This document shows positions 5,086-60,636 of a stretch of DNA of 64,000 nucleotides, one piece after another. The stretch's first letter is position 1. Every line of letters starts with the position of its first letter. The stretch covers positions 1,190 through 65,189 of the forward strand of contig JBAZSF010000004.1 in NCBI GenBank assembly GCA_041662525.1, in the 5' to 3' direction. Source of the DNA: Minisyncoccota bacterium. GTDB lineage: Bacteria > Patescibacteriota > Minisyncoccia > Phycocordibacterales > UBA9973. The notes under the pieces were generated by a model. That model worked only from the letters and a program-made list of their open reading frames with translations, was not told the origin of the DNA and did not search any database. A program made the position numbers and the translations under genes.

Positions 5086-5137
5086 ACCCCGTTTAGACGA
5101 GCTTGAGGCTTTGTCTATAACGGGGTTGATTACTGTT
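5086..5137. terminator. Hairpin between convergent genes (candidate bidirectional terminator)
   Basis: aaaaccccgtt…aacggggtt inverted repeat between the tktB stop and the stop of the minus-strand ORF. Confidence 0.4.
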
Positions 5138-5465
5138 TAAGGTATAAGTTGAAACTTCCGCACCATGCCGACGAAGCCTCGGCCTTGAGATTCTTATTAC
5201 TCGAACTTAGAATTCGTTTCAAGATCTCGATTTCTTCTGTCGGTCTTTCAAAAATGCTTTCTCCAGCATAATCACACCCCTTATGTTCAAAGATGATTCT
5301 ATTGCCGTGGAATCTAATATCGGCTTGGCCCTGCATGAGTGCTCGTACAAAACTTGTGCAGTAGATATTAGACTCCGTACTACCATCACCGGAAAGTCCG
5401 GCCCCAATAATCTCTCCCGCGTCGTTTCTTTTGAGATTAAAATTGAGATTTAAAATTGTTTCCAT
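5130..5465 (-). CDS. Hypothetical protein (~111 aa) with locally elevated GC
   Basis: ORF with an aaagga SD-like sequence before METILNL…. No recognisable family. The start is chosen at the internal Met preceded by the SD. Confidence 0.4.
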   Translation of the reverse strand: METILNLNFNLKRNDAGEIIGAGLSGDGSTESNIYCTSFVRALMQGQADIRFHGNRIIFEHKGCDYAGESIFERPTEEIEILKRILSSSNKNLKAEASSAWCGSFNLYLKQ

Positions 5466-5613
5466 GTTTTTCCTTTTGATATGTGTATTTTTGCCGACCA
5501 TCCAAAGAATGGTTTATTACAAAGTTTCAGAGCTTCAAAGTTCAGAAATCTGATATAATAAAAGCACAAAAAATATATTTTGTAAAGGCCAGCGTCTATT
5601 TTCAATACCGCTT

Positions 5614-20816: not shown

Positions 20817-21515
20817 TTAATAATTTTCACTCATTCTTCTTACTTTTTCAAAAAGTAACATAATTATAATTGTAACGACCCACAAAAATGCTAATACTTT
20901 CAAGAAATCACTTCCATCATTTCTTATTATAAAAAAATTAAAGGCGCTATGCAAGGCAATAGCAATTAAAAATCCAAAAAAAAGGAAACTATTTCTTTCC
21001 CATTTTTTCATAAAAAAAGAAATTCCTATCGAGATACCTATTATTCCACTTGAGATCGTGTGAAGGAGATTGGCCCCCAGAAATCTTAGATTACCAGTAC
21101 TTAGGCTCAAGGTAGTTCCTATTGAAGAAGGAAAAATTTTAAGCAAGAATAACATATTTTCAAGAGCAGCAAATCCTAGAGCTGCAGTAATCATATATAT
21201 CGGCCAATCTATTGGTTTGTCGGCATTTCTTGTTTTACACAAGATCACCAATACCGCAAGATATTTTAATATTTCTTCTGCGCTAGCCCATAATACAAGC
21301 TTACCTTCATAAGAGCTTATTTGATCTTGTATAAATTTTTGAATTGGCAAGACAAATATAACCATTATCATGCCCATTATAAATACTATAGCGACTAATC
21401 CTTTTGGTTCAGGGTGTTCTTCGTCTTCTTTCAACCAAAACCATAGCCATAAAAGAGAAGGGATAATTCCACCCAAAAATGCTACGATTAAAGTTTTTGG
21501 ATCAGTTGTTATCAT
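20817..21515 (-). CDS. PrsW-family intramembrane protease-like protein
   Basis: Multi-TM protein with EExxK (AEEILKY), FAxxEN (GFAALENM) and a downstream HxxxN/S motif typical of PrsW/YpdC. The start is taken at an internal Met to limit overlap with valS; the longest ORF runs to 21557. Confidence 0.55.
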   Translation of the reverse strand: MITTDPKTLIVAFLGGIIPSLLWLWFWLKEDEEHPEPKGLVAIVFIMGMIMVIFVLPIQKFIQDQISSYEGKLVLWASAEEILKYLAVLVILCKTRNADKPIDWPIYMITAALGFAALENMLFLLKIFPSSIGTTLSLSTGNLRFLGANLLHTISSGIIGISIGISFFMKKWERNSFLFFGFLIAIALHSAFNFFIIRNDGSDFLKVLAFLWVVTIIIMLLFEKVRRMSENY

Positions 21516-23715
21516 TATGGCCGTAGGTCCCGAGCGTAGCGAGGGGCCATTGTTCAATCATTAATAGATTTTTGTTTTGTTCTTGGTCTTTCGTGGGCAT
21601 CATCGACCAAATTTCTTCTGTAACGAATGGCATAAAAGGATGTAAGGTTTTAAGTAAGGTAATTAAATGTGTGTAAAGAAGAACTTTAGCTGAATCTGCA
21701 TTTTTATTTTCTAAAATCTTTTTCTTTGAACGTTCGATGATAATATCCGCGAAGGTGTGCCAGAAATAATGATAAAGTTTTTCGGCGACAAGAGAAAATT
21801 TAAATTCACTCATTTCTTTTGATACCTCAGCTATCAAACTTTCTAATTCTTTTTTACTTAGTGCATCTTCTTCATCGAGTTTTGATGTATTGATAATATT
21901 AAAATCTTTTGTTTGCTCTAAGACAAATCTGGAAGCGTTCCAAACTTTGTTAGTAAATTTTCCATAGCCACGAATATCGTTTTCATTTAATTTTAAATCA
22001 TTTCCTGGAGTATTGCCTATGACCATTGCCATCCGTAATGCATCATTGCCATATTTTTCTATTATATCTAATGGGTCGATAGCTTTTTCACCGAGTGATT
22101 TAGACATTTTTTTACCATCGGCTGTACGGACCATGCCATGTAGGTAAACTTTTTCAAACGGTATTTCTCCTAAGAGATACTGAGACATTAGAATCATACG
22201 GGCAATCCAGAAAAAAAGAATATCGTGTCCTGTTTCTAGAATAGTGGTCGGATGATAATCTTCAAGATCCTTTGTTTTTTCAGGCCAGCCCAAAGTAGAA
22301 AAGGTCCAAAGTCCTGAGGAAAACCAAGTATCTAACGTATCTTCATCTTGAATCCATCCTTCTTCTTTTGGTGCTTCAATACCACAATAAATTTCTTTAT
22401 CTTTATACCATACGGGTATTCTGTGCCCATACCAGATTTGTCTACTAATACACCAATCACGCAAGTTTTCAATCCAGTTGAAATACACTTTTTCGAAATG
22501 AGATGGCATTATTTTTATTTTTCCATTCCTTACTGGCTCTAGCATTAATTCTTTGAGGGATTTATTTTCTCTGTTTGGAATTTTTTTATTTACATCCACG
22601 AACCATTGGAGCATTATTTGAGGTTCGATCATTCCTCCAGTTCTCTCTGCGGTAGCCACTCTGTTTACATAATTTTCTTCAAGTTTTACTAGTAATCCTT
22701 TTTCTTTTAATTTTTCTACAATTTTTTCTCTAGCTTCAGTAATTTTCATACCTGCAAAATCTCCTGCAATAGGAAGGAGTTTGCCGTATTTGTCTATGAT
22801 TTGTTCTTTGTCTAATTTGTATTTTTCGGCAATGGCAAAGTCTTCGTGTGAATGCCACGGGGTTATAGTCATGACTCCAGTACCGAATTCCATATCGATT
22901 ATTTCATCTTTTATAACAGTAGCTTCTATTGGTCCATTTATCCACTCGACAGTCAGCTTGTCGCCATGTTTCCACTTTATATATCTTTTATCGTCTGGAT
23001 GCATCACAACGTATTTATCACCAAATTTTGTTTCTGGGCGAGCAGTACCTATTTCAAAAGGTCCATATTTAAAAGTATAAAACTTACCTTTTCTTTCTTC
23101 ATAGACTAATTCATCATCTGAAATGACTGTTTGCCCTTTTGGATCCCAGTTTACTATTCTGTGTCCACGATAAATAAGCCCATCGTCATACATTGTTTTA
23201 AAAGCAGTTTTTACGGCAATATTACGAGTTTCATCTAGGGTAAAAGCTTCGCGAGACCAGTCAAGGGAAGCACCGAGCTTTTTTGCTTGGTTCACTATCG
23301 TGTCGTGTGATTCTTTGGCAAATTTTTCTACTTGTTTTAAAAATTCTTCTCGGCCTAAAATATTTTTTCTAATACCTTCTTTTTCTAGCATTTTTTCTAC
23401 CTTGGATTGGGTGGCTATCGCAGCATGATCAGTACCAGGGAGCCAGAGAGTACGCTTGCCTTGCATACGAGCGTGCCGCACCATGATATCTTGGATTACG
23501 AGCATAAGTGCATGTCCAGTGTGTAAATTGCCAGTGACGTTTGGTGGGGGAAGTACTATGGAGAATTTTTCTGCATCAATTTTTGTTATTCCTTTTTCTA
23601 TACATACATCTGGATTAAAAAAACCAGATTCTTCCCAAAGCTTGTAAATTTTTTCTTCGGTATTTTTAGGGTCGTAGGGTTTGAGCAACTTTTCGTTCAT
23701 GCCTAAATATATCAC
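21502..23715 (-). CDS. valS: Valyl-tRNA synthetase (compact form)
   Basis: PPPNVTGNLHTGHA (HIGH region), KMSKSLGE (KMSKS) and the editing-domain layout of ValRS. 737 aa, so it lacks the long C-terminal coiled coil. Confidence 0.88.
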   Translation of the reverse strand: MIYLGMNEKLLKPYDPKNTEEKIYKLWEESGFFNPDVCIEKGITKIDAEKFSIVLPPPNVTGNLHTGHALMLVIQDIMVRHARMQGKRTLWLPGTDHAAIATQSKVEKMLEKEGIRKNILGREEFLKQVEKFAKESHDTIVNQAKKLGASLDWSREAFTLDETRNIAVKTAFKTMYDDGLIYRGHRIVNWDPKGQTVISDDELVYEERKGKFYTFKYGPFEIGTARPETKFGDKYVVMHPDDKRYIKWKHGDKLTVEWINGPIEATVIKDEIIDMEFGTGVMTITPWHSHEDFAIAEKYKLDKEQIIDKYGKLLPIAGDFAGMKITEAREKIVEKLKEKGLLVKLEENYVNRVATAERTGGMIEPQIMLQWFVDVNKKIPNRENKSLKELMLEPVRNGKIKIMPSHFEKVYFNWIENLRDWCISRQIWYGHRIPVWYKDKEIYCGIEAPKEEGWIQDEDTLDTWFSSGLWTFSTLGWPEKTKDLEDYHPTTILETGHDILFFWIARMILMSQYLLGEIPFEKVYLHGMVRTADGKKMSKSLGEKAIDPLDIIEKYGNDALRMAMVIGNTPGNDLKLNENDIRGYGKFTNKVWNASRFVLEQTKDFNIINTSKLDEEDALSKKELESLIAEVSKEMSEFKFSLVAEKLYHYFWHTFADIIIERSKKKILENKNADSAKVLLYTHLITLLKTLHPFMPFVTEEIWSMMPTKDQEQNKNLLMIEQWPLATLGTYGHNDNN

Positions 23716-23737: not shown

Positions 23738-24943
23738 TTAGAGCTTTAGATTACCAGTTGCTTTTACGTCATCTAATTTAGGAACTCTCTTTTTATTTTT
23801 TATATAATTTAAATATCCAGCGATACCGATCATTATAGAATTATCTCCCATAAGTTCTTTTGTGGGAAATAAGATTTTTATTTTTTTTCCGCCAGAGGCG
23901 GATCCGCCTAGGGCGGAGATTTCATTCTGTAAATGTTTATTAGCCACGACTCCTCCAGCAACGATAAGAGTTTTTATATTATATTTTTCTACAGCTTTTT
24001 TTGTTTTGTAAGTTAAACATTCGATAGCGGCGTTTTCAAATTCTAAAGCAATTTGTGCTTTTGTTTTTTGGTTGATTTTTTTGATACCACCTAAATCTCT
24101 TATCAAATACAAAACTGCTGTTTTGAGTCCAGAAAAAGAAAAATTAAAATCTTTAGTATATATCATTGGACGGGGGAGAGCTAAAGAAAAACTAATCTTT
24201 TTGGGGTTGCGTTCACAGGAGAAGCGAGAAACTCGTGCGGACTCAGCGCACATAATTTTCTGTTGAAAATTTGCTATGCTCGGCTCGCCAGCCTGCGCAA
24301 TGCTTCGCTCGCACGAGTTTCTCGCTTCTCCTGCCAATTTTGAAATCTGTGGTCCACCAGGATAAGGTAGATCAAGCATTCTGGCCACTTTATCGAAAGC
24401 TTCACCGACGGCATCGTCGAGTGTTTCCCCGATAATTTCATAATTCATAAATTTGTTAGAAAGTACTAATTGGGTGTGCCCGCCTGATACGAGCAACATC
24501 AGTATAGGTGTTTTTAATTTCTCTATTTTAAAAGTTCCCCTGCCTTTTCCAAAAACAGAAAGGATGTGTCCTTCCATATGGTTGACTGGTACTAAGGGTA
24601 CTTTCCATTTTTGCGAGAGCTCTTTGGCAAAAACGATCCCAGTCCAAAGAGACATTTCAAGTCCTGGACCATGAGTCACCATTATTGCGTCTATTGGTTT
24701 TTTATTTTTACTTAACTTAACTTTTTTCAAGCAGGCTTCTAATAAAATAGGCAGATTTTTTTCATGTTCCAGTTTTGCCAGTTTTGGAAAAACTCCGCCA
24801 TAGGGGATGTGAACATTGATTTGAGAATTTGAGCTGTTGGCTAAAACTTTAAAAGAAGCATTTGTAATGCCTCCTTTAGCTTCCATTATACTTATTGCTG
24901 TATCGTCGCAGGAAGTTTCGATGCTTAAAATTCTTATTGTCAT
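23738..24943 (-). CDS. tsaD: tRNA N6-adenosine threonylcarbamoyltransferase TsaD (Kae1/Gcp family)
   Basis: ILSIETSCDDTAISI N-terminus, …HMEGHIL… metal-binding motif, …FSFSGLKTAV…. Carries a ~40-aa in-frame insertion encoded by a GC-rich palindrome at 24216-24333. Confidence 0.88.
   Translation of the reverse strand: MTIRILSIETSCDDTAISIMEAKGGITNASFKVLANSSNSQINVHIPYGGVFPKLAKLEHEKNLPILLEACLKKVKLSKNKKPIDAIMVTHGPGLEMSLWTGIVFAKELSQKWKVPLVPVNHMEGHILSVFGKGRGTFKIEKLKTPILMLLVSGGHTQLVLSNKFMNYEIIGETLDDAVGEAFDKVARMLDLPYPGGPQISKLAGEARNSCERSIAQAGEPSIANFQQKIMCAESARVSRFSCERNPKKISFSLALPRPMIYTKDFNFSFSGLKTAVLYLIRDLGGIKKINQKTKAQIALEFENAAIECLTYKTKKAVEKYNIKTLIVAGGVVANKHLQNEISALGGSASGGKKIKILFPTKELMGDNSIMIGIAGYLNYIKNKKRVPKLDDVKATGNLKL
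24216..24333. repeat. GC-rich palindromic element inserted in-frame in tsaD
   Basis: Perfect 24-bp inverted repeats caggagaagcgagaaactcgtgcg / cgcacgagtttctcgcttctcctg flank a 70-bp core. The core contains ctcggctcgccagcct, a 15/16 match to the MITE core ctcggctcgacagcct. Confidence 0.7.
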
Positions 24944-24950
24944 ATTTATG

Positions 24951-25022
24951 TGCGCGGTGAGGGGATTGAACCCCCGGCCTACCCCACGTCAAGGGGTCGC
25001 TCTACCACTGAGCTAACCGCGC
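24951..25022 (-). tRNA. tRNA-Val (anticodon GAC)
   Basis: The reverse complement folds as GCGCGGT…ACCGCGC with anticodon stem ACCCC/GGGGT, loop TTGACGT, T-arm CCGGGGGTTCAATCCCC. Confidence 0.8.
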
Positions 25023-25031
25023 ATCTCATTA

Positions 25032-25787
25032 CTATACTATCAATTTCTCTAATGTTTCAAGCTCTTCTTTGGAATTTACTCCTAAAGCTTCATGGGGATC
25101 AATATTTATTGATTGTATTTGATTTTTTTCTTTCATCGCTATTTTTACTAAATCAGTCAAGTAATATTCTTTTTGAGCATTATTTGTGTTTAACGTTTTA
25201 AGGTTTTCCCAGAGCCATTTTGCTTCAAAACAAAAGTAACAAGGATTTAATTCTTTTACCTTTTTTTCTTCTTCGTCAGTATCTTTAAATTGGACGTCTT
25301 TTATAATATCTCCATTGGGATCTCGAATTATGCGAGAAAAATTTTTGTAAAACACAGCTCTCCAATCATCAAAATCTTGGACAGTAAAAGTAGCCATGGT
25401 TATTTTTTTACTGGAAGCCAGATGAGTATCTTTTAATTTTTTTATAGTTTCAGGACTGATAAGTGGATGGTCTCCATAGAGAACCATTATGTGATCCGCA
25501 TTATTTTCAAGCATTTTTTGGGTGATTATTACTGCATGTCCTGTGCCGAGTTGTTCTTCTTGAATCATGTAATCATAATCTTTACCAAGAGCTTCCATTA
25601 CTTTTTCTTTGCCGTAGCCGACGACAATAACAGGCCTGCTGTTTATGCCAGATTTTTCAATAGATTCAAGTAAGTATTTAATTATTGATTTACCTTTTAC
25701 TGTTTCTAAAACTTTAGGTAAATCACTCTGCATTCTTGTGCCTTTTCCAGCAGCCAAAATAATTATTTTTATTTGATTATTGTCCAT
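25032..25787 (-). CDS. Sugar-1-phosphate nucleotidyltransferase, GlmU N-terminal-domain-like (UDP-GlcNAc pyrophosphorylase candidate)
   Basis: IIILAAGKGTRMQSDLPKVL matches the GlmU/NTP-transferase G-loop. 251 aa, with no left-handed beta-helix acetyltransferase domain. Confidence 0.7.
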   Translation of the reverse strand: MDNNQIKIIILAAGKGTRMQSDLPKVLETVKGKSIIKYLLESIEKSGINSRPVIVVGYGKEKVMEALGKDYDYMIQEEQLGTGHAVIITQKMLENNADHIMVLYGDHPLISPETIKKLKDTHLASSKKITMATFTVQDFDDWRAVFYKNFSRIIRDPNGDIIKDVQFKDTDEEEKKVKELNPCYFCFEAKWLWENLKTLNTNNAQKEYYLTDLVKIAMKEKNQIQSINIDPHEALGVNSKEELETLEKLIV

Positions 25788-25835
25788 ATGGTGCTTAATG
25801 ATAGCAGATTAGAGAGTGGTTTTCAAATCATGAAT

Positions 25836-25856
25836 CCACTAGGTCTTTCCTAGCGG
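25836..25856. repeat. Conserved hairpin motif CCRCTAGG-N6-CCTAGYGG (copy 1)
   Basis: ccactaggtctttcctagcgg. A second copy sits at 35765-35785 in the opposite orientation with a compensatory G·U pair. Confidence 0.5.
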
Positions 25857-25971
25857 AAAGGCAATGTTTATGTGGTCCACAATAATTTGCTTTCCGTCGA
25901 AAGCAAATTTTCCAGACCCGGACTCAGCTATCCGCCAGCTGGCGGATTATGCTTCCGTCTTCACAAAGCAC

Positions 25972-26004
25972 AAAAAAAGAGCACAGCAGTGTGCTCTTTT
26001 TTAT
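25972..26004. terminator. Bidirectional Rho-independent terminator
   Basis: aaaaaaagagcacagcagtgtgctctttttt: a GC stem flanked by A- and T-runs. Confidence 0.8.
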
Positions 26005-26016
26005 GTAAGTGCTTTG

Positions 26017-26088
26017 TGACCCCACAGAGAATCGAACTCTGATTACCGGATTGAAAACCCGATGTCCTAACCGTTAGACGATGGGGCC
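26017..26088 (-). tRNA. tRNA-Glu (anticodon TTC)
   Basis: The reverse complement is GGCCCCATCGTCTAACGGTTAGGACA-TCGGG-TTTTCAA-TCCGG-…GTTCGATTC…TGGGGTC, closely resembling bacterial tRNA-Glu. Confidence 0.8.
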
Positions 26089-26161
26089 AATTTCTAAACT
26101 AAACTTAAAGTATCATAACATTTTTTGAAAAAACTGCAAAAAATGTTAGATTATCAAACGA

Positions 26162-26246
26162 GGAGGGTTCGCCTAATGGTATGGCACTGGTTTCGAAAAC
26201 CAGCGGGAGTAATCCCTTACAGGTTCAAGTCCTGTACCCTCCGCCA
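26162..26246 (+). tRNA. tRNA-Ser (anticodon CGA), type II with a long variable arm and encoded CCA
   Basis: Acceptor GGAGGGT/ACCCTCC, anticodon stem CTGGT/ACCAG, loop TTCGAAA, long variable arm CGGGAGTAATCCCTTAC, T-arm CAGG-TTCAAGT-CCTG, GCCA 3' end. Confidence 0.85.
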
Positions 26247-26249
26247 CTA

Positions 26250-26279
26250 TTGACAATTCAGCTTTTTTATGGCTAATAT
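26250..26279 (+). promoter_or_regulatory. Sigma-70-like promoter upstream of the NUDIX-REC gene
   Basis: TTGACA -N18- TAATAT, followed by a short inverted repeat (atgaca…gtcat). Confidence 0.45.
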
Positions 26280-26355
26280 GACATTGGAGGCACTTTGTCA
26301 TCTACAACCCAAAAATATATAAATAAATATGGCCTACACGGCTAAAGGAGGAGTT

Positions 26356-27267
26356 ATGGAATTGCATCATATTGCGTTAGTGCTTTTATTGAACGCAAAA
26401 GAAGAGGTGTTGCTCGCCCGTAGAGTTGACAATTGGGAGCTACCTGGTGGGCACGTTGAACCTGCCGATGGAAGTCGTGAAAAAGCATTCGTACGCGAAA
26501 TAAGAGAAGAAACACAACTGAGAGGGATTTTTAATAAACGCCTTTTGTTCAGTCGTGATGAACACAAGGAGGAAAAGTTGTACATGTTCGATATTTATGT
26601 CGGGCATTGCTACGATGAACGATTTCCTGGTTCACTCGTAGCCGAGGGGATTATCGAGACCAAGTGGTGGTCTCTAGACGAGACTAAAGGATTGACGCTG
26701 ACTCCTATGGCAAGTAAAGCGCTTAATTTTTTAAAGGAGAAGCGCTCGTCTTTTATCTCAGAGTGCCGGCATCACTTTCACGTGGTGTTGAACGAGGCAA
26801 AACTTCAGGGGGCTGGAGTTGAGAACATGGAAAACCTCAAGAAGAAAATGGAAGAATGCATAGAGATGTTGTCGATAATTGGCCAGTTACCGCCTGCTGT
26901 CAAGAGCAAAGCAGTCGGTAAGCAAAAGGTCATCGTTATGGTTGACGATGACGAGTATACTCTGTATACACTCAAAAAATTGTTTTCAGCTGAGAAATAC
27001 CGAGTCTACTCCTTTAGCGATCCAAGGGAAGCCTTGGATTGGTTGAAAGAGTCATCAGTTGAAGTTGACGCGCTTGTTACCGACCAGAGAATGCACTGTA
27101 TATATGGTTCAGAGCTTCTCAGGAAGGTGCGCGAGTTGAAGATACTCGCGTCGGCAAAGTTTGTTCTTATCAGCGGTGAAGAAGTTCCCGCTGATGACAA
27201 AAAAGGGTTTGATAAATTCTTTGTCAGACCAGTATCGCCCGATGAGCTCATTCGGGTAATATCATAG
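26356..27267 (+). CDS. NUDIX hydrolase fused to a C-terminal response-regulator receiver (REC) domain
   Basis: Nudix box GGHVEPADGSREKAFVREIREETQL. C-terminal KVIVMVDDDE…DALVTDQRM…KFVLISG has the REC acidic pocket, phospho-Asp and Lys positions. An aaaggagg SD lies 5 nt before ATG(MELHH); the longest ORF starts at 26329. Confidence 0.7.
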   Translation: MELHHIALVLLLNAKEEVLLARRVDNWELPGGHVEPADGSREKAFVREIREETQLRGIFNKRLLFSRDEHKEEKLYMFDIYVGHCYDERFPGSLVAEGIIETKWWSLDETKGLTLTPMASKALNFLKEKRSSFISECRHHFHVVLNEAKLQGAGVENMENLKKKMEECIEMLSIIGQLPPAVKSKAVGKQKVIVMVDDDEYTLYTLKKLFSAEKYRVYSFSDPREALDWLKESSVEVDALVTDQRMHCIYGSELLRKVRELKILASAKFVLISGEEVPADDKKGFDKFFVRPVSPDELIRVIS

Positions 27268-27280
27268 AATCTTAGATCTA

Positions 27281-27319
27281 AAAATCCCCGTTGCGTGCCA
27301 TAAGCACCAACGGGGATTT
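27281..27319 (+). terminator. Intrinsic-terminator-like hairpin after the NUDIX-REC gene
   Basis: aaaatccccgttg-cgtgccataagcac-caacggggattt: 12-bp GC-rich stem. Confidence 0.6.
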
Positions 27320-27346
27320 GCTATTTATAAAAGATAATTCATAATA

Positions 27347-28912
27347 ATGAGCATGGTTCGCCTATATGAAAAAATGTTCTCGATAATTAGAATGATTCTC
27401 ACCACAATGCGGCAGTACGTCATGGCACTTGAACATGTCCGGATGCATAAATTAGGAATCACCGATAGCGAACAAAAATTTCGCTTGATAGCGGAGTCGG
27501 TCAATAACGCTATCATCACGTTTGACGAAGCCGGATTCGTAGTGTACTGGAACAAGAGTGCTAAACGCATATTTGGTTTTAATGAAAGCGAGGTCCTAGG
27601 AAAACCATTTATTCTTGGTAAGCACGAAAAGAAAAACAACTGGGACATAGGAAAGAATATTTCAGTCGAGATGCAAGGGGTGCGGAAAAACGGCAAAGAA
27701 TTCCCCTTAAAGGTGTCGTATTCATCGTGGAAAATTGGCGAGAAACAATTCCATACAGCAATTGCCCGAGATGTAGGCCCTTATCGAGCAACAGAACAAA
27801 AGCTCCGCGATTATGCTCAAAAGATGAAAGAGGGTAGGGCATTCGACGACGCGCTTCTCTTGAGCATCGCAGACGGCATTCTAGTAACCGATACGGTAGG
27901 TAAAATTACCTATATCAACAAAGCGCTCGAGGAGCTCTGTGGCATGAAGTCCTCCGAGCTTTTGAACCATGATTTAGATGAAAAGATCCCTTTTTTCGAC
28001 GAGCTCGGGAGACGCGTCTCGAAGGAGAAACGGCCGCTCTATATGGCACTCGATACCGATAAAAAAAACAATGAACTCGCGGTTTCAACTGCGACGACTT
28101 TCCATCTCATTCACAAAAAAGACAAACGAATAGTTCCTCTCTCAATCAGTTCTGCGCCTCTCGTGATCAATGGTGATATTAAGGGGGCGGTGGTAGTCTG
28201 GCGCGATATTACTCAAGAAAAGGAGATCGAAAAAGCAAAAAGTGAGTTTATTTCTCTTGCTTCACACCAGCTCCGCACACCACTCACTACTATTTCCCTG
28301 ACAACTGAGATGTTAATGAAGGGTATGGTGGGTGATATGAGTAAGGAAAATAAAAAATATTTAAAAAAGATTTTTAAAGAAGTAAAAAATATGACAGAAG
28401 TGATCCAAACATTTTTGAATATTTCCCGCATCGAAATGGGCAAATTCGAAATAGAGTTGAAACCGGTAAAATTATTCGAAATTATGGAAGAAATAGTCGA
28501 AGAAATACTGCCACAGATTAATAATAAAAAAATATATTTCAAGAAACAATATAACAAAAATCTACCGACTATAAATTTAGACAAAAGAGTTATTAGAATT
28601 ATCTTGGAAAATCTTCTTTCGAATGCTATTAAATATTCAAAACCGGACGGCCAGATAACACTATTAACAAAAAAAACTGGCAATTATGTTATCATAGAGG
28701 TTTCGGACAATGGTATCGGCATTCCGAAAAAAGATCAAGATAAGATATTTACAAAAATGTTTCGGGCTAGAAACGCTTCGGAGCATGCCAATGTGAGTTC
28801 GGGGCTGGGTCTTTACCTAGTAAAAAATTTAGCAGAACAGAGCGGGTATAAAATCTCTGTTAAATCAAAAGAGGATAAGGGCACCACTTTTTCAATTTCA
28901 TTACCACTATAA
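27347..28912 (+). CDS. Sensor histidine kinase with tandem PAS domains (soluble; no obvious TM)
   Basis: PAS-like segments (…IITFDEAGFVVYWN…, …GILVTDTVGKITYIN…). HisKA H-box SHQLRTPL, N-box LLSNAIKYS, G1 DNGIGIP, G2 GLGLYLV. Confidence 0.85.
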   Translation: MSMVRLYEKMFSIIRMILTTMRQYVMALEHVRMHKLGITDSEQKFRLIAESVNNAIITFDEAGFVVYWNKSAKRIFGFNESEVLGKPFILGKHEKKNNWDIGKNISVEMQGVRKNGKEFPLKVSYSSWKIGEKQFHTAIARDVGPYRATEQKLRDYAQKMKEGRAFDDALLLSIADGILVTDTVGKITYINKALEELCGMKSSELLNHDLDEKIPFFDELGRRVSKEKRPLYMALDTDKKNNELAVSTATTFHLIHKKDKRIVPLSISSAPLVINGDIKGAVVVWRDITQEKEIEKAKSEFISLASHQLRTPLTTISLTTEMLMKGMVGDMSKENKKYLKKIFKEVKNMTEVIQTFLNISRIEMGKFEIELKPVKLFEIMEEIVEEILPQINNKKIYFKKQYNKNLPTINLDKRVIRIILENLLSNAIKYSKPDGQITLLTKKTGNYVIIEVSDNGIGIPKKDQDKIFTKMFRARNASEHANVSSGLGLYLVKNLAEQSGYKISVKSKEDKGTTFSISLPL

Positions 28913-35890: not shown

Positions 35891-36274
35891 TCAAATTTTC
35901 CCTGTTTTACTGGTGTTGATTGAGACCACAACACCATCGGGAGAAAAGGTAATACTTACTTGCCTTACCTCCCTTCCGACCAGGCTATTTTTTCTCATCT
36001 GGTCGGTGCTATCCACTCCTCTTGTGGTCAAGGCTTCCCACAAAATGTCATGCTTTTCCTTGACAGATACCCATGTGCAAACTTGGGTCCCGTTATCAGA
36101 TGTTATCTCTTGATCTGGGGGACCAAAAATATTTACTACATCAGCCTTGGTACTAACCCCCTTGATGATGCTGGAAACAGCATCAAGATTGTTGCTTCCT
36201 CTTGTTTCTGTTGTTGTTATACAACCACAACACATAAAAAAGAGAACCATAACAAAAGCAACCGACTTTTTCAT
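35891..36274 (-). CDS. Putative lipoprotein / secreted protein (hypothetical)
   Basis: MKKSVAFVMVLFFMCCGC signal peptide with a lipobox-like Cys, preceded by a taggagg SD. The start is taken at this Met rather than the longest ORF (36340). Confidence 0.45.
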   Translation of the reverse strand: MKKSVAFVMVLFFMCCGCITTTETRGSNNLDAVSSIIKGVSTKADVVNIFGPPDQEITSDNGTQVCTWVSVKEKHDILWEALTTRGVDSTDQMRKNSLVGREVRQVSITFSPDGVVVSINTSKTGKI

Positions 36275-36325
36275 ACGACCTCCTAAACGTTTAAAGGTTA
36301 ACAGAGAACTTCTTCTCCTCATCCA

Positions 36326-36400
36326 TCTATATATAAACATATAATTTTTACTTTGTCTAGAGGCTTTAAATTAGTATTTAAAGTTATTCACAGGAGAAGT
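36326..36400 (-). promoter_or_regulatory. Promoter/leader module, copy A (duplicated upstream of two adjacent minus-strand genes)
   Basis: ~70-bp segment (…aacatataattttta-ctttgtctagaggc-tttaaattagtatttaaagttattcacagga) homologous to 36706-36775. Contains the conserved CCYCTAGACAWAG box with a TCTAGA core. Confidence 0.5.
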
Positions 36401-41755: not shown

Positions 41756-42091
41756 TTATATGCAACCTGTTGGTTTGGGAAGTCCTGCATATTTACATGA
41801 CCGTTTTACAGGACTACCCGGATATAATTTGAAAAGGTGTTTTGAGTTGCCTTTTTCTGGTCCCAACACCCTCCCTATCACCCTTATAAGGTTATTAAAA
41901 AAAGGAACAATCTGGTACTGCTTGTAATGGTCTCTGAGTAAATTGATCACCTCCCAGTGTTCTGGTGTCAATTCTGTATTGTCCTGTTTAGCAAGAACTT
42001 CTGCAAGCTCCTTGCTCCAGTCATCGAGGTTCAGAAGATAGCCGTCGTCATCCACCTCAATCTGTCTTCCTTGAAAATCTATTGTTGGCAT
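41756..42091 (-). CDS. DsrC/TusE-family sulfur-relay-like protein
   Basis: The C-terminal …CKYAGLPKPTGCI has the conserved penultimate Cys and a second Cys 10-11 residues upstream, as in DsrC/TusE. Confidence 0.65.
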   Translation of the reverse strand: MPTIDFQGRQIEVDDDGYLLNLDDWSKELAEVLAKQDNTELTPEHWEVINLLRDHYKQYQIVPFFNNLIRVIGRVLGPEKGNSKHLFKLYPGSPVKRSCKYAGLPKPTGCI

Positions 42092-52157: not shown

Positions 52158-53948
52158 TTAACAACCTACTCCCACTTTCCAAAATTCTATAGCTTGAAGA
52201 ATTAAGGAATTTAAAACATTGCCGATCTTCCATTGACCTATATAAGATAAAATTTCCGCATTACCAATAACACCATCGAGATTTGTGTCAGCTGTAGTTT
52301 GACAAGCAGGGCCGACCGCTGTCACGGTAACTATTGAAGCATTACTAGTTACTGCGTCTGAAGTCGCAGTGATGTTTGTCGTACCAGCAGCTACTGCTGT
52401 TACGAGACCCGTAGCACTCACTGTAGCTACTGCTGTATCAGAAGAATTCCAAGTCATCGCAGGTTGAGTCGCTAGAGCTACACTATTTTGATCTAAAGCA
52501 GAAGCTGATAGTTGAGAAGTACCTGCGACTACTATACTCGCTGTTGTTGGTGTGACTGAAATTGAAGTGAGGACGGGATTTGGGGTAATAGCCACCACAT
52601 TGACAGTCCTGGTAACCGACGTAGCTGGATTACCAGCGGCGTCAGAAACGTTGTAGGTCAAAATGTAACTCCCCAAAGTGGCTGTATCTACTGTACCGGT
52701 GACAATTATGTTGGCAGTGATATTGCCATCCACATCATCAGAAGCAGTGGCTCCTGGATCAGTGAAGACACTTGCTTGAACCACATCCACTGGGTTAGCT
52801 CCAAGTAATATAATGACTGGGAGAGTGGTGTCAGCAGGTGGTGAAACAGCTGTAATAATTATTGTGACTGGAGATGAAACTGGCGCTGATACCATGTCAT
52901 CAACAATTACATTAAAATTATAAGTTCCTGCTATGCTTGGGGTCCATGAAAATGTTCCCATGGCATTAATTGATGATCCAATAGGCGCATTCGCGTCAAG
53001 CGTATACATTAGCATTCCCTGATTTGGATTAGTGGCAATTACATCAAATGTTACTGCTTGCCCAACTGTTCCATTTTGTTGAGGTATTGGGGTTATGACT
53101 GGAGATGCTGCAAAGCTAGCGCTGATCGTATGAGCAATAGTAACGTTGGTGAAGGTGTAAGTCGCAACTGCGCCAACTGAAACTCCGTCCACCAAAACAT
53201 CCGCTACTACGAAATTAGTATTCGGAGTTATGGTGTAAGCTCTATTTGCTCCATGATTAACCGACGTCACTCCAAGAGGAGAAATTGTTCCGTTGGCGCC
53301 CGTCGAAGATGTAATGTTGTAAGTATTAATCGCGAAACTTGCATTGATCGTGTGAGTAGTTGTTACATTATTAAATGTATAATTTAAAACTGCTCCGACT
53401 GAAGATCCGTCAACTAAAACATTAGCTATATGATAACCGGTGTTTGGTGTAATTGTATAACTTTGACTTGATCCGGAGTTAACAGGGGTTGTTCCAGCTG
53501 GAGTAACTGTCCCTCCCGCGGTACTTGCAACTGAAACTATATTATGAGTTGTTGCTGTAGATGATATTACCAAATTTACGTTTGTTAACGGTTCAACAAC
53601 AAATGATCTGGTTACGTTTGTACTAAATGCTCCAAATGTCGCGTTTAATTGAATTTGATCTCCAGCAACGGTACAGATATTTAGGTTGCTTGTGTCGATC
53701 TGGTAAAATCCTCCCAAAGAGGTTACGACTGATAGTGCGGGGGATCCATTTGTAACGTCAGTAAGCGTGACAGTGGCATTATCAGTCGCTATACCATTAA
53801 ATGTAACTGTCCCATAAAATGTATTTAGCGGACATCCTTGAGCCGCAATAGCCGGGGTAGGCGAGATGAAAGCAAATTGCATTATCGCGGAAGCTACTAT
53901 CAAACTTACTATTTTTTTTATTGTATTTTTTGAGATATTTATGTTCAT
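52158..53948 (-). CDS. Secreted surface protein with Big_2 Ig-like domains and a Cys-flanked dockerin-like C-terminal module
   Basis: Signal peptide. Big_2-type segment (VLTSISVTPTTASIVVAGTSQLSA…). C-terminal CQTTADTNLDGVIGNAEILSYIGQWKIGNVLNSLILQAIEFWKVGVGC, almost identical to the C-terminus of the 60637-62598 protein. Confidence 0.6.
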   Translation of the reverse strand: MNINISKNTIKKIVSLIVASAIMQFAFISPTPAIAAQGCPLNTFYGTVTFNGIATDNATVTLTDVTNGSPALSVVTSLGGFYQIDTSNLNICTVAGDQIQLNATFGAFSTNVTRSFVVEPLTNVNLVISSTATTHNIVSVASTAGGTVTPAGTTPVNSGSSQSYTITPNTGYHIANVLVDGSSVGAVLNYTFNNVTTTHTINASFAINTYNITSSTGANGTISPLGVTSVNHGANRAYTITPNTNFVVADVLVDGVSVGAVATYTFTNVTIAHTISASFAASPVITPIPQQNGTVGQAVTFDVIATNPNQGMLMYTLDANAPIGSSINAMGTFSWTPSIAGTYNFNVIVDDMVSAPVSSPVTIIITAVSPPADTTLPVIILLGANPVDVVQASVFTDPGATASDDVDGNITANIIVTGTVDTATLGSYILTYNVSDAAGNPATSVTRTVNVVAITPNPVLTSISVTPTTASIVVAGTSQLSASALDQNSVALATQPAMTWNSSDTAVATVSATGLVTAVAAGTTNITATSDAVTSNASIVTVTAVGPACQTTADTNLDGVIGNAEILSYIGQWKIGNVLNSLILQAIEFWKVGVGC

Positions 53949-53999
53949 TTTTTTTATTAATTTTTTAATTGGTAAATATTTTTCGACTTTAAAATATTT

Positions 54000-56900
54000 T
54001 TATGGTCGGTGAATGAATATTCCATCACCTTGATTGATAATGAAATCATTCAATGGAAACCCGATTATATGGCTACTATATTGCTGTATTGCCGAGTCCC
54101 ATTTGGTAACAACATCAGTACCGGCAAGTGAAGCGCCAAAAGTTTCTGCCGTGGTTGATATTGCGCTGACCCATCCAAGAAGATTCCAGCCAGTTATGGG
54201 ATTATAAGTGGCTTGAGCTGGAGATCCTTGGAATACAAATGGACTAGCTGCTGGAACATTCACAAAGAAACCATCACCTATAGTAAGATTAAAGTTATTC
54301 AATGGAAATCCAACTATATGACTGCTGTATTTCTGTGTCAGAGAATCCCATTTTACAACGACCGTTGCACCGACTGTTTGTCCAAAGTTTTCCGCTGTTA
54401 ATGTCATAGGAGTCCCCTGAGCATCAAGCGGAGTTGCGGGTAGTGTAACTAAATTCCATCCATCGTTTAGTGAAAGCATATAACTTCCAGGAGGAAGATC
54501 TCCCGCTGTTACATTGGCAGTGTTGGAATATGTTGAATTAGCAGTTGCGGTAGGGAAGCCAATTGAGGGATCCGCGTATATTTGTGTATCGCCAACAACA
54601 TTATTGGCAAAAACTCTATAATAATATGTCTGCCCCGGTTGGATAGAATTATCCAAGTATGCGGTTGCATTAACCGGAGATGTGTAAGTTATCAATCCGC
54701 TCGTAAATCCAGAGTTGGTAGCTTTTTGAATTGTAAATCCAGTTTCACTTAATGAATTATCATTCCAATTTAACTGCACTGCATTAGAAGCAAAATTTGC
54801 TGTTAAATTTGAAGGAGCTTCCGGTGGAGTGGCGAATAAAACTGCATGCATCATATCCATTTCTTCATGCGCTAAGAGATGGCAGTGATAAACATATTCC
54901 CATCCATAGTTTACATAATGATTGTTTACTGTGACATTGTTTCCATTAGGATCTTTGAGTCCGCCAGGTGGTAGCATTAACGGCGCACCCTCAGGCAATG
55001 TGGGATCAATCAAGCGCACACTATTGGGAACTGGGAATGGTTGAGTTGGAGCAAATGCTCTGAAAGCAACTATGGTGTCTTGTAAAGGATTCACTCTAAA
55101 TGTTTCCTTCCACCCGAGTTCGTTGGCATCAGGCGGTCTTATAGCACCATCCCAGGCGACTCTGTTTATAAGCTGAGCATTAAACAGGTGGGTATGGATG
55201 GTATGAGTGTCTACACCATTGTGTGTAATTTTCCAGATTTGGGTGCCGTCATCAAGAGATCCTATCGGTGTTCCGTATACAGAGCCTTTGACGATTTCAA
55301 CTGGCGGAGAGGCAAAACCGGAAAGAATGAGTAATTGTCTGTTAACTTGTGATGCTGGAAGTTCAAGCCCGAGAAATCCACTCATTCTTCCGTATTCCGA
55401 ATCGAATGCTTCGCCCTGCTCATCTTGGATAGCTTTTGTTTGGAAAGGTATAGTGACATTATCACCGGCGAGAGTATTGAATGTTTTTGATGCGTCATGA
55501 ATACTGGCATAATTATCTGTTGTAATATTAGAATTATAAGCTGAATTATATGCAGTTTGCGGTATGATAACTTCATCCTGAGACACTTCGAAAACTCCGC
55601 GTTTTGTACCAGGTCCTTTGGCAAATACCGCTTCTAGTGCGCCTAGATTGTATGCAGTCGCTGGAGTGGTAGGCGCCACTCTGATTTGCATTACAGTTCT
55701 TATATTAGGACCGTAACCGGCTTGGGTTGTCGGAGCTCCGCCTATGTCTGTCAAATCCGGGTCTCCGGTATGATAATCATAACGAGCATCAGCGGCTGGA
55801 AATGCTGCCGGAGCATCGTTGTATAAAATAATTGTTTTGCCCGCGTACTGTGAAAAATCAACAATTACATCCGCTCGTTCAGCCGTACCAAGGATAAGAG
55901 TTCCTTTGTTAACTAATCCCATGTCAAAGTTTGTCGGGTCCATATTCCAGTCAACTGGTTGATTGGGCAATACTACCGGTGCTGGCAAGAATCCTCCTTC
56001 GGTTCCAATTTGAATAAATGTCGGACCTGCGGTTGTCGGATCAGGCACCCCTCCTTCTCGTCCATCTTTTGGCCAATCTTCCGGGAATCCGGGAGTAGAG
56101 ACAGCTGGTACCATTTTTATTTCCGTGTTTGTTCTGCCATCAGGGGTAATAATTGTCGGATCTGCAACATAGAACTGTAAATTAAGGAAACGATCATCTG
56201 CGGCATTTAAAATTCTAAATCTGTACGCTTTTGGGTCTACGTTCATATACGGATACACTGTTCCATTGACAATGGGAGTGTCCATAAAAGCTTCCATCGC
56301 CATAGACTCATTTGGTGTTCCAGGCATTTGAGCTGGTTCCCATGGTGCACCTACTGGATCATAATATGGATTTGGAAGCGGGCCTTGAGTTACCCCAGTT
56401 GTTGGTGGCCAAAACCATGGACCATAGTGCCATCTCCCAAAAGCATTCATTCCGCTGGGATCCGCAGGATTTTGGTTTGGCATATAAACGTGTGGGTACC
56501 AAAGATCGCCATCTTGGGGAACTCCTGGTACTGCTGAATCCCACGTTGGATCTTGCATCGCAAGAGTACTGGTATCAATAAATGTTCTATCTTGAATAAT
56601 TAACGGGATACCAATATCCGGAAGAACTTTCACCAACCCAGGGTTAACTCCGGAATCATTTGTTCCATTAATTAAATCTTGTTCTACTTGGTCGGTAATT
56701 AAATATCCAGCCGCTTCTCCTGCATAAACATTTAAACGGGTAATTCCAAAAGAATGATCATGATAGAACATCAATCTAGCACTTTGTTGGTTGTTATAGT
56801 AAAAAGTAAGTGAACCATCTCCAGGGTTATTTGTTGCTCCTGGGGTTGGCGCTGTAATTTGACCGACTGTGTCTGCGACTACACTGCCATTTACAAACCA

Positions 56901-57923
56901 CATGTCGGGAACATACTCAACACTCACACCTTTCGGATAAGATGTAGTTTCACCCGCCGGAGTAGTCCATTGATGAGGAGTTCCATCACTTATCCATGGA
57001 ACAAATCCTCCATGAAGGTGCAATGTTGCCCTATTTTCTTTGTACTCTTCTTTCATTCCAGGCATTCCCGGCATATCCAATGGACCCATACCGGCACCCA
57101 TTACTGATTTATCAACTGGCAAAAAAAGTTCTCCACCTGCTCCAGTTGGAAGTTTATTTGTAAATTTAATTCTTACAGCACGATCACGATTAGAAAGAAT
57201 TAGCGGACCAAGATAATGAATCGGATCCGGCGCAATCGTATTCTGGCTGTTGCCATCAGTACCTGAATTTACCTGTACATAACCGCGTAATTTTGTTGCC
57301 GGAAGATCGGAATGCATCTTTTCCGTATATTCCCTTAATTCAATTTCATAATAATCAGCTCCCGGATAAGTAATTGTATCCGGATGCGCTACTGGGATAT
57401 ATTGTCCAAGATTGTTGGCATTAGTTGAACCTAATCCTGGCAAAGAATCCACGAATTTTTTTATTCCTCCAGTTAATGTCGAGTATCCACTCCCACCATT
57501 GGTGATTGTAATTTCAGTAATGACACCGGCAGTTGTTGAAGCTGTTGCATTTGCTCCGGTTCCAGTAAGACTTGTGATTGCAACTATTGGAGAAATATAA
57601 TTTGTTCCTCCGTTAATAATTGATATTGCGGTAACAGCCCCATTAGTAATTGTTGCTGTTGCGATAGCTCCTGTAGCTCCGCTTGTTGTGTTTGAGTCTG
57701 TGATTGTTACAACAGTCGGTTCACCGACTGGCATAGGACTATTTGCCCAGTTTGGATAAGGACCAAAATAATGTGGAATCTCTCCGGTGTTGGGAATCGT
57801 CATCGCCATAGCAACTGTCGATTTTGCATATTTGATATTTTCAATCGGCAAAGCAACAAAAGAAAAAATAAAAGACAAAATTATAAAAATATTTCCTAAA
57901 TTTCTTAAATAATTATTTTTCAT
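54000..57923 (-). CDS. Giant secreted multicopper oxidase (laccase/CotA-like, three cupredoxin domains) with FN3 and tandem C-terminal repeat domains
   Basis: Signal peptide. All four MCO copper-ligand motifs are present: HLHGG, YHDHS, HTIHTHLF, HCHLLAHEEMDMM. An FN3-like segment and two about 90-aa C-terminal repeats (…KWDS…QYSSHI(V/I)GFPLN…GDG(F/I)F…). Confidence 0.75.
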   Translation of the reverse strand: MKNNYLRNLGNIFIILSFIFSFVALPIENIKYAKSTVAMAMTIPNTGEIPHYFGPYPNWANSPMPVGEPTVVTITDSNTTSGATGAIATATITNGAVTAISIINGGTNYISPIVAITSLTGTGANATASTTAGVITEITITNGGSGYSTLTGGIKKFVDSLPGLGSTNANNLGQYIPVAHPDTITYPGADYYEIELREYTEKMHSDLPATKLRGYVQVNSGTDGNSQNTIAPDPIHYLGPLILSNRDRAVRIKFTNKLPTGAGGELFLPVDKSVMGAGMGPLDMPGMPGMKEEYKENRATLHLHGGFVPWISDGTPHQWTTPAGETTSYPKGVSVEYVPDMWFVNGSVVADTVGQITAPTPGATNNPGDGSLTFYYNNQQSARLMFYHDHSFGITRLNVYAGEAAGYLITDQVEQDLINGTNDSGVNPGLVKVLPDIGIPLIIQDRTFIDTSTLAMQDPTWDSAVPGVPQDGDLWYPHVYMPNQNPADPSGMNAFGRWHYGPWFWPPTTGVTQGPLPNPYYDPVGAPWEPAQMPGTPNESMAMEAFMDTPIVNGTVYPYMNVDPKAYRFRILNAADDRFLNLQFYVADPTIITPDGRTNTEIKMVPAVSTPGFPEDWPKDGREGGVPDPTTAGPTFIQIGTEGGFLPAPVVLPNQPVDWNMDPTNFDMGLVNKGTLILGTAERADVIVDFSQYAGKTIILYNDAPAAFPAADARYDYHTGDPDLTDIGGAPTTQAGYGPNIRTVMQIRVAPTTPATAYNLGALEAVFAKGPGTKRGVFEVSQDEVIIPQTAYNSAYNSNITTDNYASIHDASKTFNTLAGDNVTIPFQTKAIQDEQGEAFDSEYGRMSGFLGLELPASQVNRQLLILSGFASPPVEIVKGSVYGTPIGSLDDGTQIWKITHNGVDTHTIHTHLFNAQLINRVAWDGAIRPPDANELGWKETFRVNPLQDTIVAFRAFAPTQPFPVPNSVRLIDPTLPEGAPLMLPPGGLKDPNGNNVTVNNHYVNYGWEYVYHCHLLAHEEMDMMHAVLFATPPEAPSNLTANFASNAVQLNWNDNSLSETGFTIQKATNSGFTSGLITYTSPVNATAYLDNSIQPGQTYYYRVFANNVVGDTQIYADPSIGFPTATANSTYSNTANVTAGDLPPGSYMLSLNDGWNLVTLPATPLDAQGTPMTLTAENFGQTVGATVVVKWDSLTQKYSSHIVGFPLNNFNLTIGDGFFVNVPAASPFVFQGSPAQATYNPITGWNLLGWVSAISTTAETFGASLAGTDVVTKWDSAIQQYSSHIIGFPLNDFIINQGDGIFIHRP

Positions 57924-58086
57924 ATATCTCTATATTAATTATTAATAATCGATTACTTTTTAGTATTAAAAAACTTACAAACTTAATAATAGTCAAACGA
58001 TAATAGCTGAAGTTAAATTTGACATTAAAGATTTTAAGGGCATTTTGATTTTTTAAAAAAATATTATTATTTCTGAGCAAAAAAAA

Positions 58087-58095
58087 GGGGGGGGG
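58087..58095. repeat. G9/C9 homopolymer in the MCO promoter region
   Basis: The only long G/C homopolymer seen in this AT-rich window. About 165 bp upstream of the MCO start, just downstream of the terminator of the preceding gene. Confidence 0.6.
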
Positions 58096-58114
58096 AGTCC
58101 TTGCTTAAAATAAC

Positions 58115-58146
58115 AAAAAACCGGAAGACTAGTCCGGTTTTTGTTA
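58115..58146. terminator. Rho-independent terminator after the PG-binding surface protein gene
   Basis: aaaaaaccggaagactagtccggtttttgtt. Confidence 0.8.
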
Positions 58147-58179
58147 TAACGTTTTTTTATAATTAAGACAGTTAATAAT

Positions 58180-60591: not shown

Positions 60592-60636
60592 ATTTTTTAT
60601 TTTATTATTTTTAATTTTGATAATTTTTCGACACTT

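Follow-up and report, generated by a model that had tools for sequence, protein, structure and literature searches.

How does a stretch rich in guanine and cytosine (GC) come to end abruptly in the middle of a gene? This question is raised by a 64-kb window (W hereafter, meaning the whole stretch of DNA analysed) from the small, reduced and low-GC genome of a member of the Patescibacteria, in which a gene for a response regulator combining a NUDIX and a receiver (REC) domain, called NUDIX-REC here, is followed by a gene for a sensor histidine kinase whose GC content drops partway along its length. Our analysis favours, with a probability of roughly 75%, the reading that this island is the compositional trace of an old gene transfer and recombination within the Patescibacteria, and that the kinase is a hybrid of the sensor of a GC-rich lineage and the transmitter of the host lineage. 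The two genes and the parts of the kinase are given below, where GC3 denotes the GC content at third codon positions (GC1 and GC2 accordingly); loci of relatives are numbered with L and homologous proteins with P.

26329-27267, + strand: NUDIX-REC response regulator, 312 amino acids (Pfam NUDIX 2.4e-15, Response_reg 1.8e-11)
27347-28912, + strand: hybrid soluble sensor histidine kinase, 521 amino acids, PAS1-PAS2-HisKA-HATPase_c (Pfam, motifs, orthologues P0002-P0004)
27347-28288, + strand: kinase segment of foreign type, codons 1-314 (from the N-terminus through PAS1, PAS2 and the linker to the H-box with His307), GC3 0.50
28265-28267, + strand: codon of the phospho-accepting His307 within SHQLRTPLT (motif and alignments)
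28289-28912, + strand: native-type transmitter of the kinase, codons 315-521 (what remains of DHp helix 1, with helix 2 and the CA domain), GC3 0.33

Composition of the island

Between 26300 and 28300 the DNA has 43.8% GC against 36.0% in the whole window, a deviation of +2.2 standard deviations (SD) for 2-kb windows, and windows of 200 nucleotides (nt) within it span 35.5% to 48.5%. The island noticed in a preliminary description of this locus, which was made from the sequence alone, is thus real, although the contrast given there (45-55% against about 30%) was exaggerated. Inside the kinase gene the GC content falls from 48.0% (28000-28199) to 30.0% (28300-28499) and then 26.0% (28500-28699), so that the abrupt switch described earlier is real as well; however, it recovers to 35.5-39.5% in windows across 28600-28899, and over its full length the C-terminal half has 32-33% and not 25-30%.

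The step is also seen in codon usage. The GC3 is 0.482 in the NUDIX-REC gene, 0.497 in codons 1-314 of the kinase and 0.333 in codons 315-521 (Fisher p = 2.9e-4), while the background across 53 open reading frames (ORFs) of the window has a mean of 0.276 and an SD of 0.064; the two island genes hold the top two values of the window. Their GC2 is ordinary (0.30-0.33). In the kinase, GC1 is also higher in the N-terminal part than in the C-terminal part (0.50 vs 0.37), and the GARP/FYMINK amino-acid proxy is 0.36 for the N half and 0.25 for the C half. The GC3 change point of the kinase lies at codon 286 (nt 28205; likelihood-ratio test (LRT) statistic 17.6, a value reached in none of 2000 permutations), with a support interval of 28028-28466, and the change point for all nucleotides lies at nt 28335. 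A comparable LRT of 21 is obtained for the gene of a CHRD/Big_2 protein at 60637-62598 (- strand), where GC3 is 0.38 and then 0.21 past codon 242, and therefore intragenic heterogeneity of GC3 is not unique to the kinase gene.

In fact, the GC excess of the island lies in synonymous codon choice, beyond amino-acid composition. Under the codon preferences of the window, the amino-acid content of the island predicts a GC3 of 0.276, whereas about 0.49 is observed. Amino-acid composition alone, which was part of the outcome named as fatal to the first interpretation, does not explain the difference. Codons ending in G or C are up in almost every codon family; for example, GAG usage is 49% in the island and 21% in the background, AAG 41% and 17%, AAC 60% and 22%, and CTC 32% and 10%. 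Moreover, by the likelihood of synonymous codons, the NUDIX-REC gene together with kinase codons 1-314 best fits L016, a locus of a 52% GC organism of the kinase group A defined below, while kinase codons 315-521 best fit the window background, as do trxB, ftsZ and a GlmU-like gene.

Two parentages within the kinase gene

For the kinase, 120 homologues were collected, four of which are full-length orthologues, and the bit-score correlation and the amino-acid proxy were calculated over 116. Two groups of them are relevant here: group A (P0005-P0011, P0014, P0015, P0019 and P0022) contains the relatives of the sensor half, and group B (about 30 proteins) those of the transmitter half. When the halves are searched separately by BLAST, as had been suggested, they give inverted rankings of relatives:

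Group A: N-half identity 39-60%, C-half identity 38-53%
Group B: N-half identity 24-32%, C-half identity 58-70%

The bit scores of the two halves are accordingly negatively correlated over the homologues (rho = -0.67). Along the protein, group A reaches sliding identities of 0.41-0.75 over residues from about 140 to 300, where group B has 0.06-0.39; from about residue 315 onwards group B has 0.5-0.7 and group A 0.3-0.5. Neighbour-joining trees give the same picture: 192 of 200 bootstraps place PAS2 with the linker (residues 140-300) as sister to the group A kinases of GC-rich Patescibacteria, and 197 of 200 place the transmitter as sister to P0026 plus P0030. The transmitter (315-521) is 64-71% identical to the clade of P0026, P0030, P0025 and P0029, 57-65% to other members of group B and 37-42% to group A.

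The best single breakpoint falls after residue 314, at nt 28289, seven residues past the phospho-accepting His307, which agrees with the position of about 28300 proposed at first. Residues of group A type extend to 314: the alignment is group A-like until '...AKSEFISLASHQLRTPLT' and group B-like from 'TISLTTEMLM...', and right past the junction the Ser codons switch from AGY, the group A type, to TCN, the type of group B and of the kinase here. The window of residues 286-315 is highly conserved in both parents, with 81% identity to group A and 76% to group B. The protein junction coincides with the GC switch. The gene thus has what identifies a recombinant gene, namely incongruent relatives on either side of a breakpoint, GC change points (28205 and 28335) next to it and a difference of codon usage between the parts.

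The composition of the two groups follows the same division where their DNA is available:

Group A loci L008, L009 and L016: locus GC 57%, 60% and 52%; kinase GC3 0.69, 0.84 and 0.58
Group B loci L010, L012 and L015: locus GC 35-36%; kinase GC3 0.23-0.25

In each of these kinase genes GC3 is uniform along the length. The GARP/FYMINK proxy is 0.40-0.50 in group A (P0005 0.37) and 0.23-0.29 in group B (a few up to 0.32). The kinase is therefore chimeric, as first supposed, with a sensor half of foreign type that carries GC-richer codon usage and has its nearest relatives in GC-rich Patescibacteria; the transmitter was rightly called native, being compositionally native and phylogenetically sister to the host's own MASE3-PAS paralogue P0026. 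This paralogue lies in the same window:

62760-64000, + strand: resident MASE3-PAS-HisKA-HATPase kinase, closest relative of the transmitter, running off the window end (full sequence P0026, 663 amino acids)

The part in the window is 100% identical to P0026 over 413 amino acids and matches Pfam MASE3 (9e-78) plus PAS. The remainder of the gene is supplied by L015, which comes from the same strain as W (99.97% identical), and in which a lipoprotein gene and a convergent gene for an OmpR-type regulator come after the resident kinase. The resident gene has a uniform GC3 of 0.23 and lies 34 kb from the hybrid; it shares with the hybrid's transmitter 69% of amino acids and 73% of nucleotides, at a synonymous divergence (dS) of about 2, which is saturated.

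As for architecture, the domains first assigned to the two island genes, NUDIX with REC and PAS-PAS-HisKA-HATPase_c, are borne out by Pfam. The kinase belongs to the HisKA class (Pfam HisKA 7.9e-16 at residues 297-365, H-box at 306-314) and has a complete HATPase_c domain (2.2e-26; N box NAIKYS at 426, G1 DNGIGI at 454, G2 GLGLYL at 486). Both parental lineages have the architecture of MASE3-PAS kinases (NF047874; Pfam PF17159 plus PAS, HisKA and HATPase_c); the hybrid, unlike them, has no MASE3 membrane module. In fact no MASE3 or transmembrane part was found in it by Pfam, and its first 45 residues are charged, unlike a membrane segment. Its residues 150-520 align to the NF047874 model, at model positions 250-624 only, with a score of 190.8 bits where the cut-off is 560; the hybrid thus counts as a soluble derivative and not as a member of the MASE3_PAS_HK family. 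The database copy of the kinase has 506 amino acids, with a later start codon than the 521-amino-acid ORF. The source names of proteins identical to those of W place its metagenome-assembled genome in the Paceibacterota (Patescibacteria).

Taken as a course of events, codons 1-314 would derive from a MASE3-PAS-PAS kinase lineage of GC-rich (52-60% GC) Patescibacteria, with loss of the MASE3 membrane part, and codons 315-521 from the low-GC MASE3-PAS kinase of the host lineage itself, with the crossover probably falling in the stretch most conserved between both parents, just past the H-box. On one route, foreign DNA would have taken the place of the 5' part in a duplicate of the resident kinase; on the other, the resident paralogue would have overwritten the 3' part of an imported kinase. 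The two routes are indistinguishable here.

Age of the fusion and its competing explanations

The same hybrid is found in three other lineages:

L007: kinase identity 88%; syntenic, followed by trxB and ftsZ
L004/L013: kinase identity 84%; other context, NUDIX-REC upstream
L005 (GCA_028718635.1): kinase identity 76%; other context, beside tRNA-Trp, without NUDIX-REC

In relatives' genomes from NCBI and JGI, the contigs that bear the gene are 378 kb and 672 kb long. The GC3 of the N- and C-terminal parts is 0.36 and 0.31 in L007, 0.46 and 0.31 in L004/L013, and 0.41 and 0.24 in L005, with local backgrounds of about 0.27-0.31. In comparisons between orthologues both halves have dS of 0.4-2.3 and a ratio of nonsynonymous to synonymous divergence (dN/dS) of 0.07-0.14, that is, purifying selection. 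Between W and L007, dS is 0.84 for the N half and 0.42 for the C half of the kinase, and 0.68 for the flanking trxB and 0.80 for ftsZ; the values of the kinase bracket those of its neighbours, and therefore the kinase has been inherited vertically since W and L007 split. The description of the locus as domain shuffling caught in the act does not survive these comparisons, given the same hybrid in three lineages at 76-88% identity and dS of 0.4-2.3, and a transmitter that is 31% diverged from its paralogue. A recent island would be absent from relatives or would have a near-identical donor, at near-zero synonymous divergence, and the locus has none of these properties. The fusion would thus be older than the split of at least four related lineages, and the foreign part would be partly ameliorated, its GC3 being 0.36-0.51 against a background of about 0.28. 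In the N part of L007, polarised synonymous changes number 28 from G/C to A/T (S>W) and 2 in the opposite direction (W>S), as amelioration predicts.

Several points weigh against this reading. On the W branch the N part has 14 S>W and 18 W>S changes (6 and 8 under strict polarisation), counts too small to decide between ongoing amelioration and maintenance of GC. If the fusion predates the split of W and L005 (dS 1.5-2), the GC3 excess has outlasted simple amelioration toward 0.27, in which most of it is expected to be lost after about one synonymous substitution per site; an extra force may have acted at the locus, such as re-import, GC-biased gene conversion or selection. In the L005 orthologue (L005:10001-11566, codons about 299-306), D299, L302 and A306 just upstream of His307 are of the group B, resident-paralogue type; the junction may therefore differ among lineages, and these residues hint at extra gene conversion. 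PAS1 (residues 40-139) has no clear affinity for either group and is never clearly B-like in the trees. No donor more than 60% identical to the sensor part was found, the best donor-side identity being 60% over PAS2, and with only the N half as query a protein search yielded four proteins, a result that is uninformative because its word-index prefilter missed known orthologues too. Finally, the trees are distance-based, from short alignments with 200 bootstraps, and DNA was in hand for three loci per group, with the amino-acid proxy serving for the remainder.

These difficulties lead to the first competing explanation, that GC-biased gene conversion or selection has raised or held the synonymous GC at a recombination-prone locus, so that it is no leftover of a donor, while the mosaic of the protein may stand. 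GC3 has remained high in four lineages despite dS of 0.8-2.3, the W branch is without net loss of GC (to the N-part counts above the C part adds 2 S>W and 8 W>S under strict polarisation), and the allele replacement of NUDIX-REC described below shows that recombination does occur here. We nevertheless regard it as unlikely, for the excess ends at the protein junction instead of decaying around a hotspot, the relatives of the sensor are in GC-rich genomes, and the codon usage best fits the organism with the closest PAS2; moreover, the loss of GC on the L007 branch is strong, and the counts on the W branch that seem to oppose it are small.

It is more improbable still that the kinase is ancestral and that the low-GC kinases of group B swapped their sensor domains instead. 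Replacement of sensors after duplication is common in histidine kinases (PMC1630713), and group B varies in the number of PAS domains, with forms of 663 and about 770 amino acids. However, the switch of GC3 and codon usage stands at the junction in the gene studied here, whereas group A and group B genes are uniform along their length; the transmitter nests with the subclade of P0026 and P0030 and not outside group B; and it is the hybrid that is without the MASE3 module common to both groups.

Still less likely is the absence of any transfer, in which amino-acid composition or codon selection for expression would have shaped two genes passed on vertically. Amino acids do account for part of the overall GC step, as GC1 and the proxy values show, but the GC3 predicted from them falls far short of that observed, and AAG, GAG, CGG and CTC are all up, unlike what selection for particular tRNAs would give; in addition, the phylogenetic incongruence exceeds 95% bootstrap support and the flanking housekeeping genes fit the background.

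A metagenome assembly chimera joined at a tRNA and the conserved H-box, conceivable for a metagenome-derived contig because tRNA genes and H-boxes are conserved and two Logan contigs end in tRNA-Ser, is rejected, since one assembly in ENA and two in Logan, made from different samples, match W with 100% identity over 24135-28405, 26215-28756 and 26215-28441 respectively, thus across both island edges, and since the same hybrid stands on the long contigs of relatives. The two independent Logan contigs both start at 26215, inside tRNA-Ser, which suggests a branch of the assembly graph in this tRNA, by strain variation or by a tRNA sequence common to other organisms.

NUDIX-REC, the surroundings and the meaning of the hybrid

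The first interpretation had NUDIX-REC and the PAS sensor arrive as a single cassette, which is not supported by our results. NUDIX-REC alleles (W 26329-27267, L007:1-450 and L004:8993-9925) are only 40-54% identical, with saturated synonymous sites (proportion of synonymous differences 0.74-0.82), beside kinases that are 83-88% identical. Nucleotide identity climbs to the level of the kinase within roughly 100 nt around the spacer; for L007 this happens near 27270-27290, and for L004 it sets in near 27170. In the comparison with L007 the rise, from about 0.6 to about 0.8, coincides with a repeat in the spacer:

27282-27319, no strand assigned: perfect 12-bp inverted repeat AAATCCCCGTTG ... 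CAACGGGGATTT between NUDIX-REC and the kinase

A divergent NUDIX-REC beside a conserved kinase speaks for allele replacement and not for co-divergence. Moreover, the kinases of both groups have OmpR-type regulators and not NUDIX-REC as partners, and the homologues of NUDIX-REC in Falkowbacteria of 48-49% GC (GC3 0.53-0.54, near the 0.54-0.66 of their neighbours) have no adjacent kinase. A locus scan with a profile of six NUDIX-REC sequences, used because an alignment of twelve was too diverse, found a known Paceibacterota genome and Falkowbacteria-type loci without adjacent kinase, and no unrecombined donor operon. All this indicates that NUDIX-REC is compositionally foreign but has a history separate from that of the kinase, so that the island is a composite of two histories; NUDIX-REC would have reached its present state by allele replacement.

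From N- to C-terminus the protein has a MutT-like NUDIX domain (residues about 11-137), a linker of two helices (142-185) and a receiver (201-311). The AlphaFold model (pLDDT 85.8) has the same layout of MutT-like fold, two-helix linker and REC domain, and Foldseek matches it to MutT/Ndx1-type NUDIX hydrolases (TM-score 0.75-0.82) and to REC domains. The Pfam NUDIX score is 57.2 bits against a cut-off of 21.1. The NUDIX box (26443-26520) reads G-x5-D-x8-RE-x2-EE-x-Q-L, which retains the catalytic RExxEE and differs from GX5EX7REUXEEXGU in having one extra residue, D in place of E and Q in place of G. In the receiver, the protein has D206/D207, D252 and S282, which the family conserves, Asp252 being the phospho-acceptor by the family alignment; the conserved Lys position (27220-27230) is Arg (FFVRPV) in W and P0122 and Lys in the other members. 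The family is rare: a word-indexed search of 5.8 billion proteins returned three, and about a dozen full-length NUDIX-then-REC clusters at 50% identity are recognisable among the best 150 matches in 1.84 billion representative proteins. Neither NUDIX-REC nor the kinase scores above the cut-off of any curated NCBIfam family, and PADLOC gives weak, generic NUDIX and HATPase matches only.

At the left edge of the island the following features are found:

26016-26088, - strand: tRNA-Glu(UUC), directly upstream of the island (ARAGORN; Rfam tRNA 59.6 bits)
26162-26246, + strand: tRNA-Ser(CGA), at the left edge of the GC3-rich segment, its 3' end 82 nt before the NUDIX-REC start codon (ARAGORN, Rfam)
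26250-26279, + strand: promoter-like site TTGACA, 18 nt, TAATAT (consensus scan, 10 of 12 matches; a pattern match only)

The locus resembles tRNA-linked genomic islands in that the deviant block starts 82 nt past the 3' end of a tRNA, and in that the L005 orthologue likewise stands 320 nt past one. It differs from them in having no integrase in or beside the island (none among the window ORFs adjoining it), no flanking direct repeats (a search for att-like repeats of the tRNA end gave nothing above chance-level matches), a right edge inside a gene, and a composite block. The integrase and tRNA-end repeats that mark an integrase-mediated island are thus missing here, and at L005 no att-like repeat beyond chance level was found around the orthologue. 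At L005:9610-14010 genes for Vut_1, a holin-like protein and a tyrosine recombinase come after the kinase orthologue past tRNA-Trp.

Some other composition signals of the window deserve mention. The most GC-rich stretch, 52158-62598 (- strand), encodes four large surface-type proteins (Big_2, CHRD, PG_binding_1; 596-1307 amino acids), and with its high GC2 of 0.46-0.59, set by amino-acid composition, and a normal GC3 of 0.27-0.30 it was rejected as a second island. These proteins evolve fast, with 58-61% identity to L004 against 84% for the kinase. GC3 is raised to 0.40 in the gene of a DsrC/TusE-like protein (41756-42091, - strand; Pfam 2.6e-39) and to 0.39-0.43 in two small ORFs without Pfam match (5130-5501 and 35891-36340, both - strand). 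The longest ValRS ORF (GTG start at 23715) overlaps the downstream minus-strand ORF 20817-21557 by 56 nt (21502-21557); the listed TTG start of the latter at 21557 is probably too far upstream, the true start being likely a later codon.

As to function, a cytoplasmic signal received at the PAS domains would lead to autophosphorylation of His307, the phosphoryl group would pass to Asp252 of NUDIX-REC, and a MutT-like nucleotide-diphosphate hydrolase would be modulated in turn. That the adjacent NUDIX-REC is the target is most likely in view of the adjacency, the sole basis for it; the L005 orthologue, which has no adjoining NUDIX-REC, speaks against the pairing. It is known that residues of the DHp domain hold the determinants of partner specificity. 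Past the H-box these are all of native type in the hybrid, about 40 of 52 (77%) matching P0026 by hand count, which makes cross-talk possible to the OmpR-type regulator of the resident kinase; at first the hybrid would have recognised this regulator.

NUDIX-REC itself can be compared with mycobacterial MutT1, in which a NUDIX domain is joined to a SixA-like histidine phosphatase domain that dephosphorylates kinases (PMC12407098). Both have a MutT-like NUDIX fused to a domain that ties it to histidine-kinase signalling, and MutT1 is among the structural matches of NUDIX-REC; unlike in MutT1, the second domain here is a receiver that would accept a phosphoryl group, and outside the NUDIX fold the two proteins are unrelated in sequence. 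Wholesale replacement of alleles beside a conserved kinase may be more typical of diversifying or conflict-type pressure than of housekeeping signalling. An unlikely further reading is that NUDIX-REC represents an undescribed class of enzymatic response regulator, a MutT-like hydrolase controlled by phosphorylation through its C-terminal receiver, with alleles under such pressure, and that the hybrid kinase could branch a foreign PAS input to NUDIX-REC and to the resident OmpR-type regulator.

The expansion of histidine-kinase families with shuffling of upstream sensor domains has been described statistically (Alm, Huang and Arkin 2006, PMC1630713). Like the kinases described there, the hybrid is a paralogue of a resident kinase with a distantly derived N-terminal sensor, standing away from the parental OmpR-type regulator. 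Unlike in those cases, both parents can be named here, one of them in the same genome, a scar of codon usage is left, the host is a reduced member of the Patescibacteria, and the crossover is mapped to a few residues inside DHp helix 1 past the His, and not to a domain linker. In engineered chimeric kinases such as Taz, Cph8 and YF1, a heterologous sensor drives the transmitter of another kinase, and the join in the coiled coil or DHp keeps the helical register. The hybrid differs from these in being natural and old, and in that its H-box comes with the sensor and its partner-specificity surface with the native transmitter, as follows from a junction seven residues past the His.

To sum up, the kinase is a finely mapped instance of a known route of kinase evolution, and the general picture of that evolution is unchanged. 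Sensor-domain shuffling is thought to be the main source of new bacterial histidine kinases, and single events are rarely resolved; here both parental lineages, the surviving resident parent, the crossover point and the codon-usage scar can be identified together. The hybrid thereby offers a natural template for the join sites of functional kinase chimeras, draws attention to the rare and uncharacterised family of NUDIX-REC regulators, and provides a testable case of pathway rewiring in the Patescibacteria, whose small genomes have few signalling systems.

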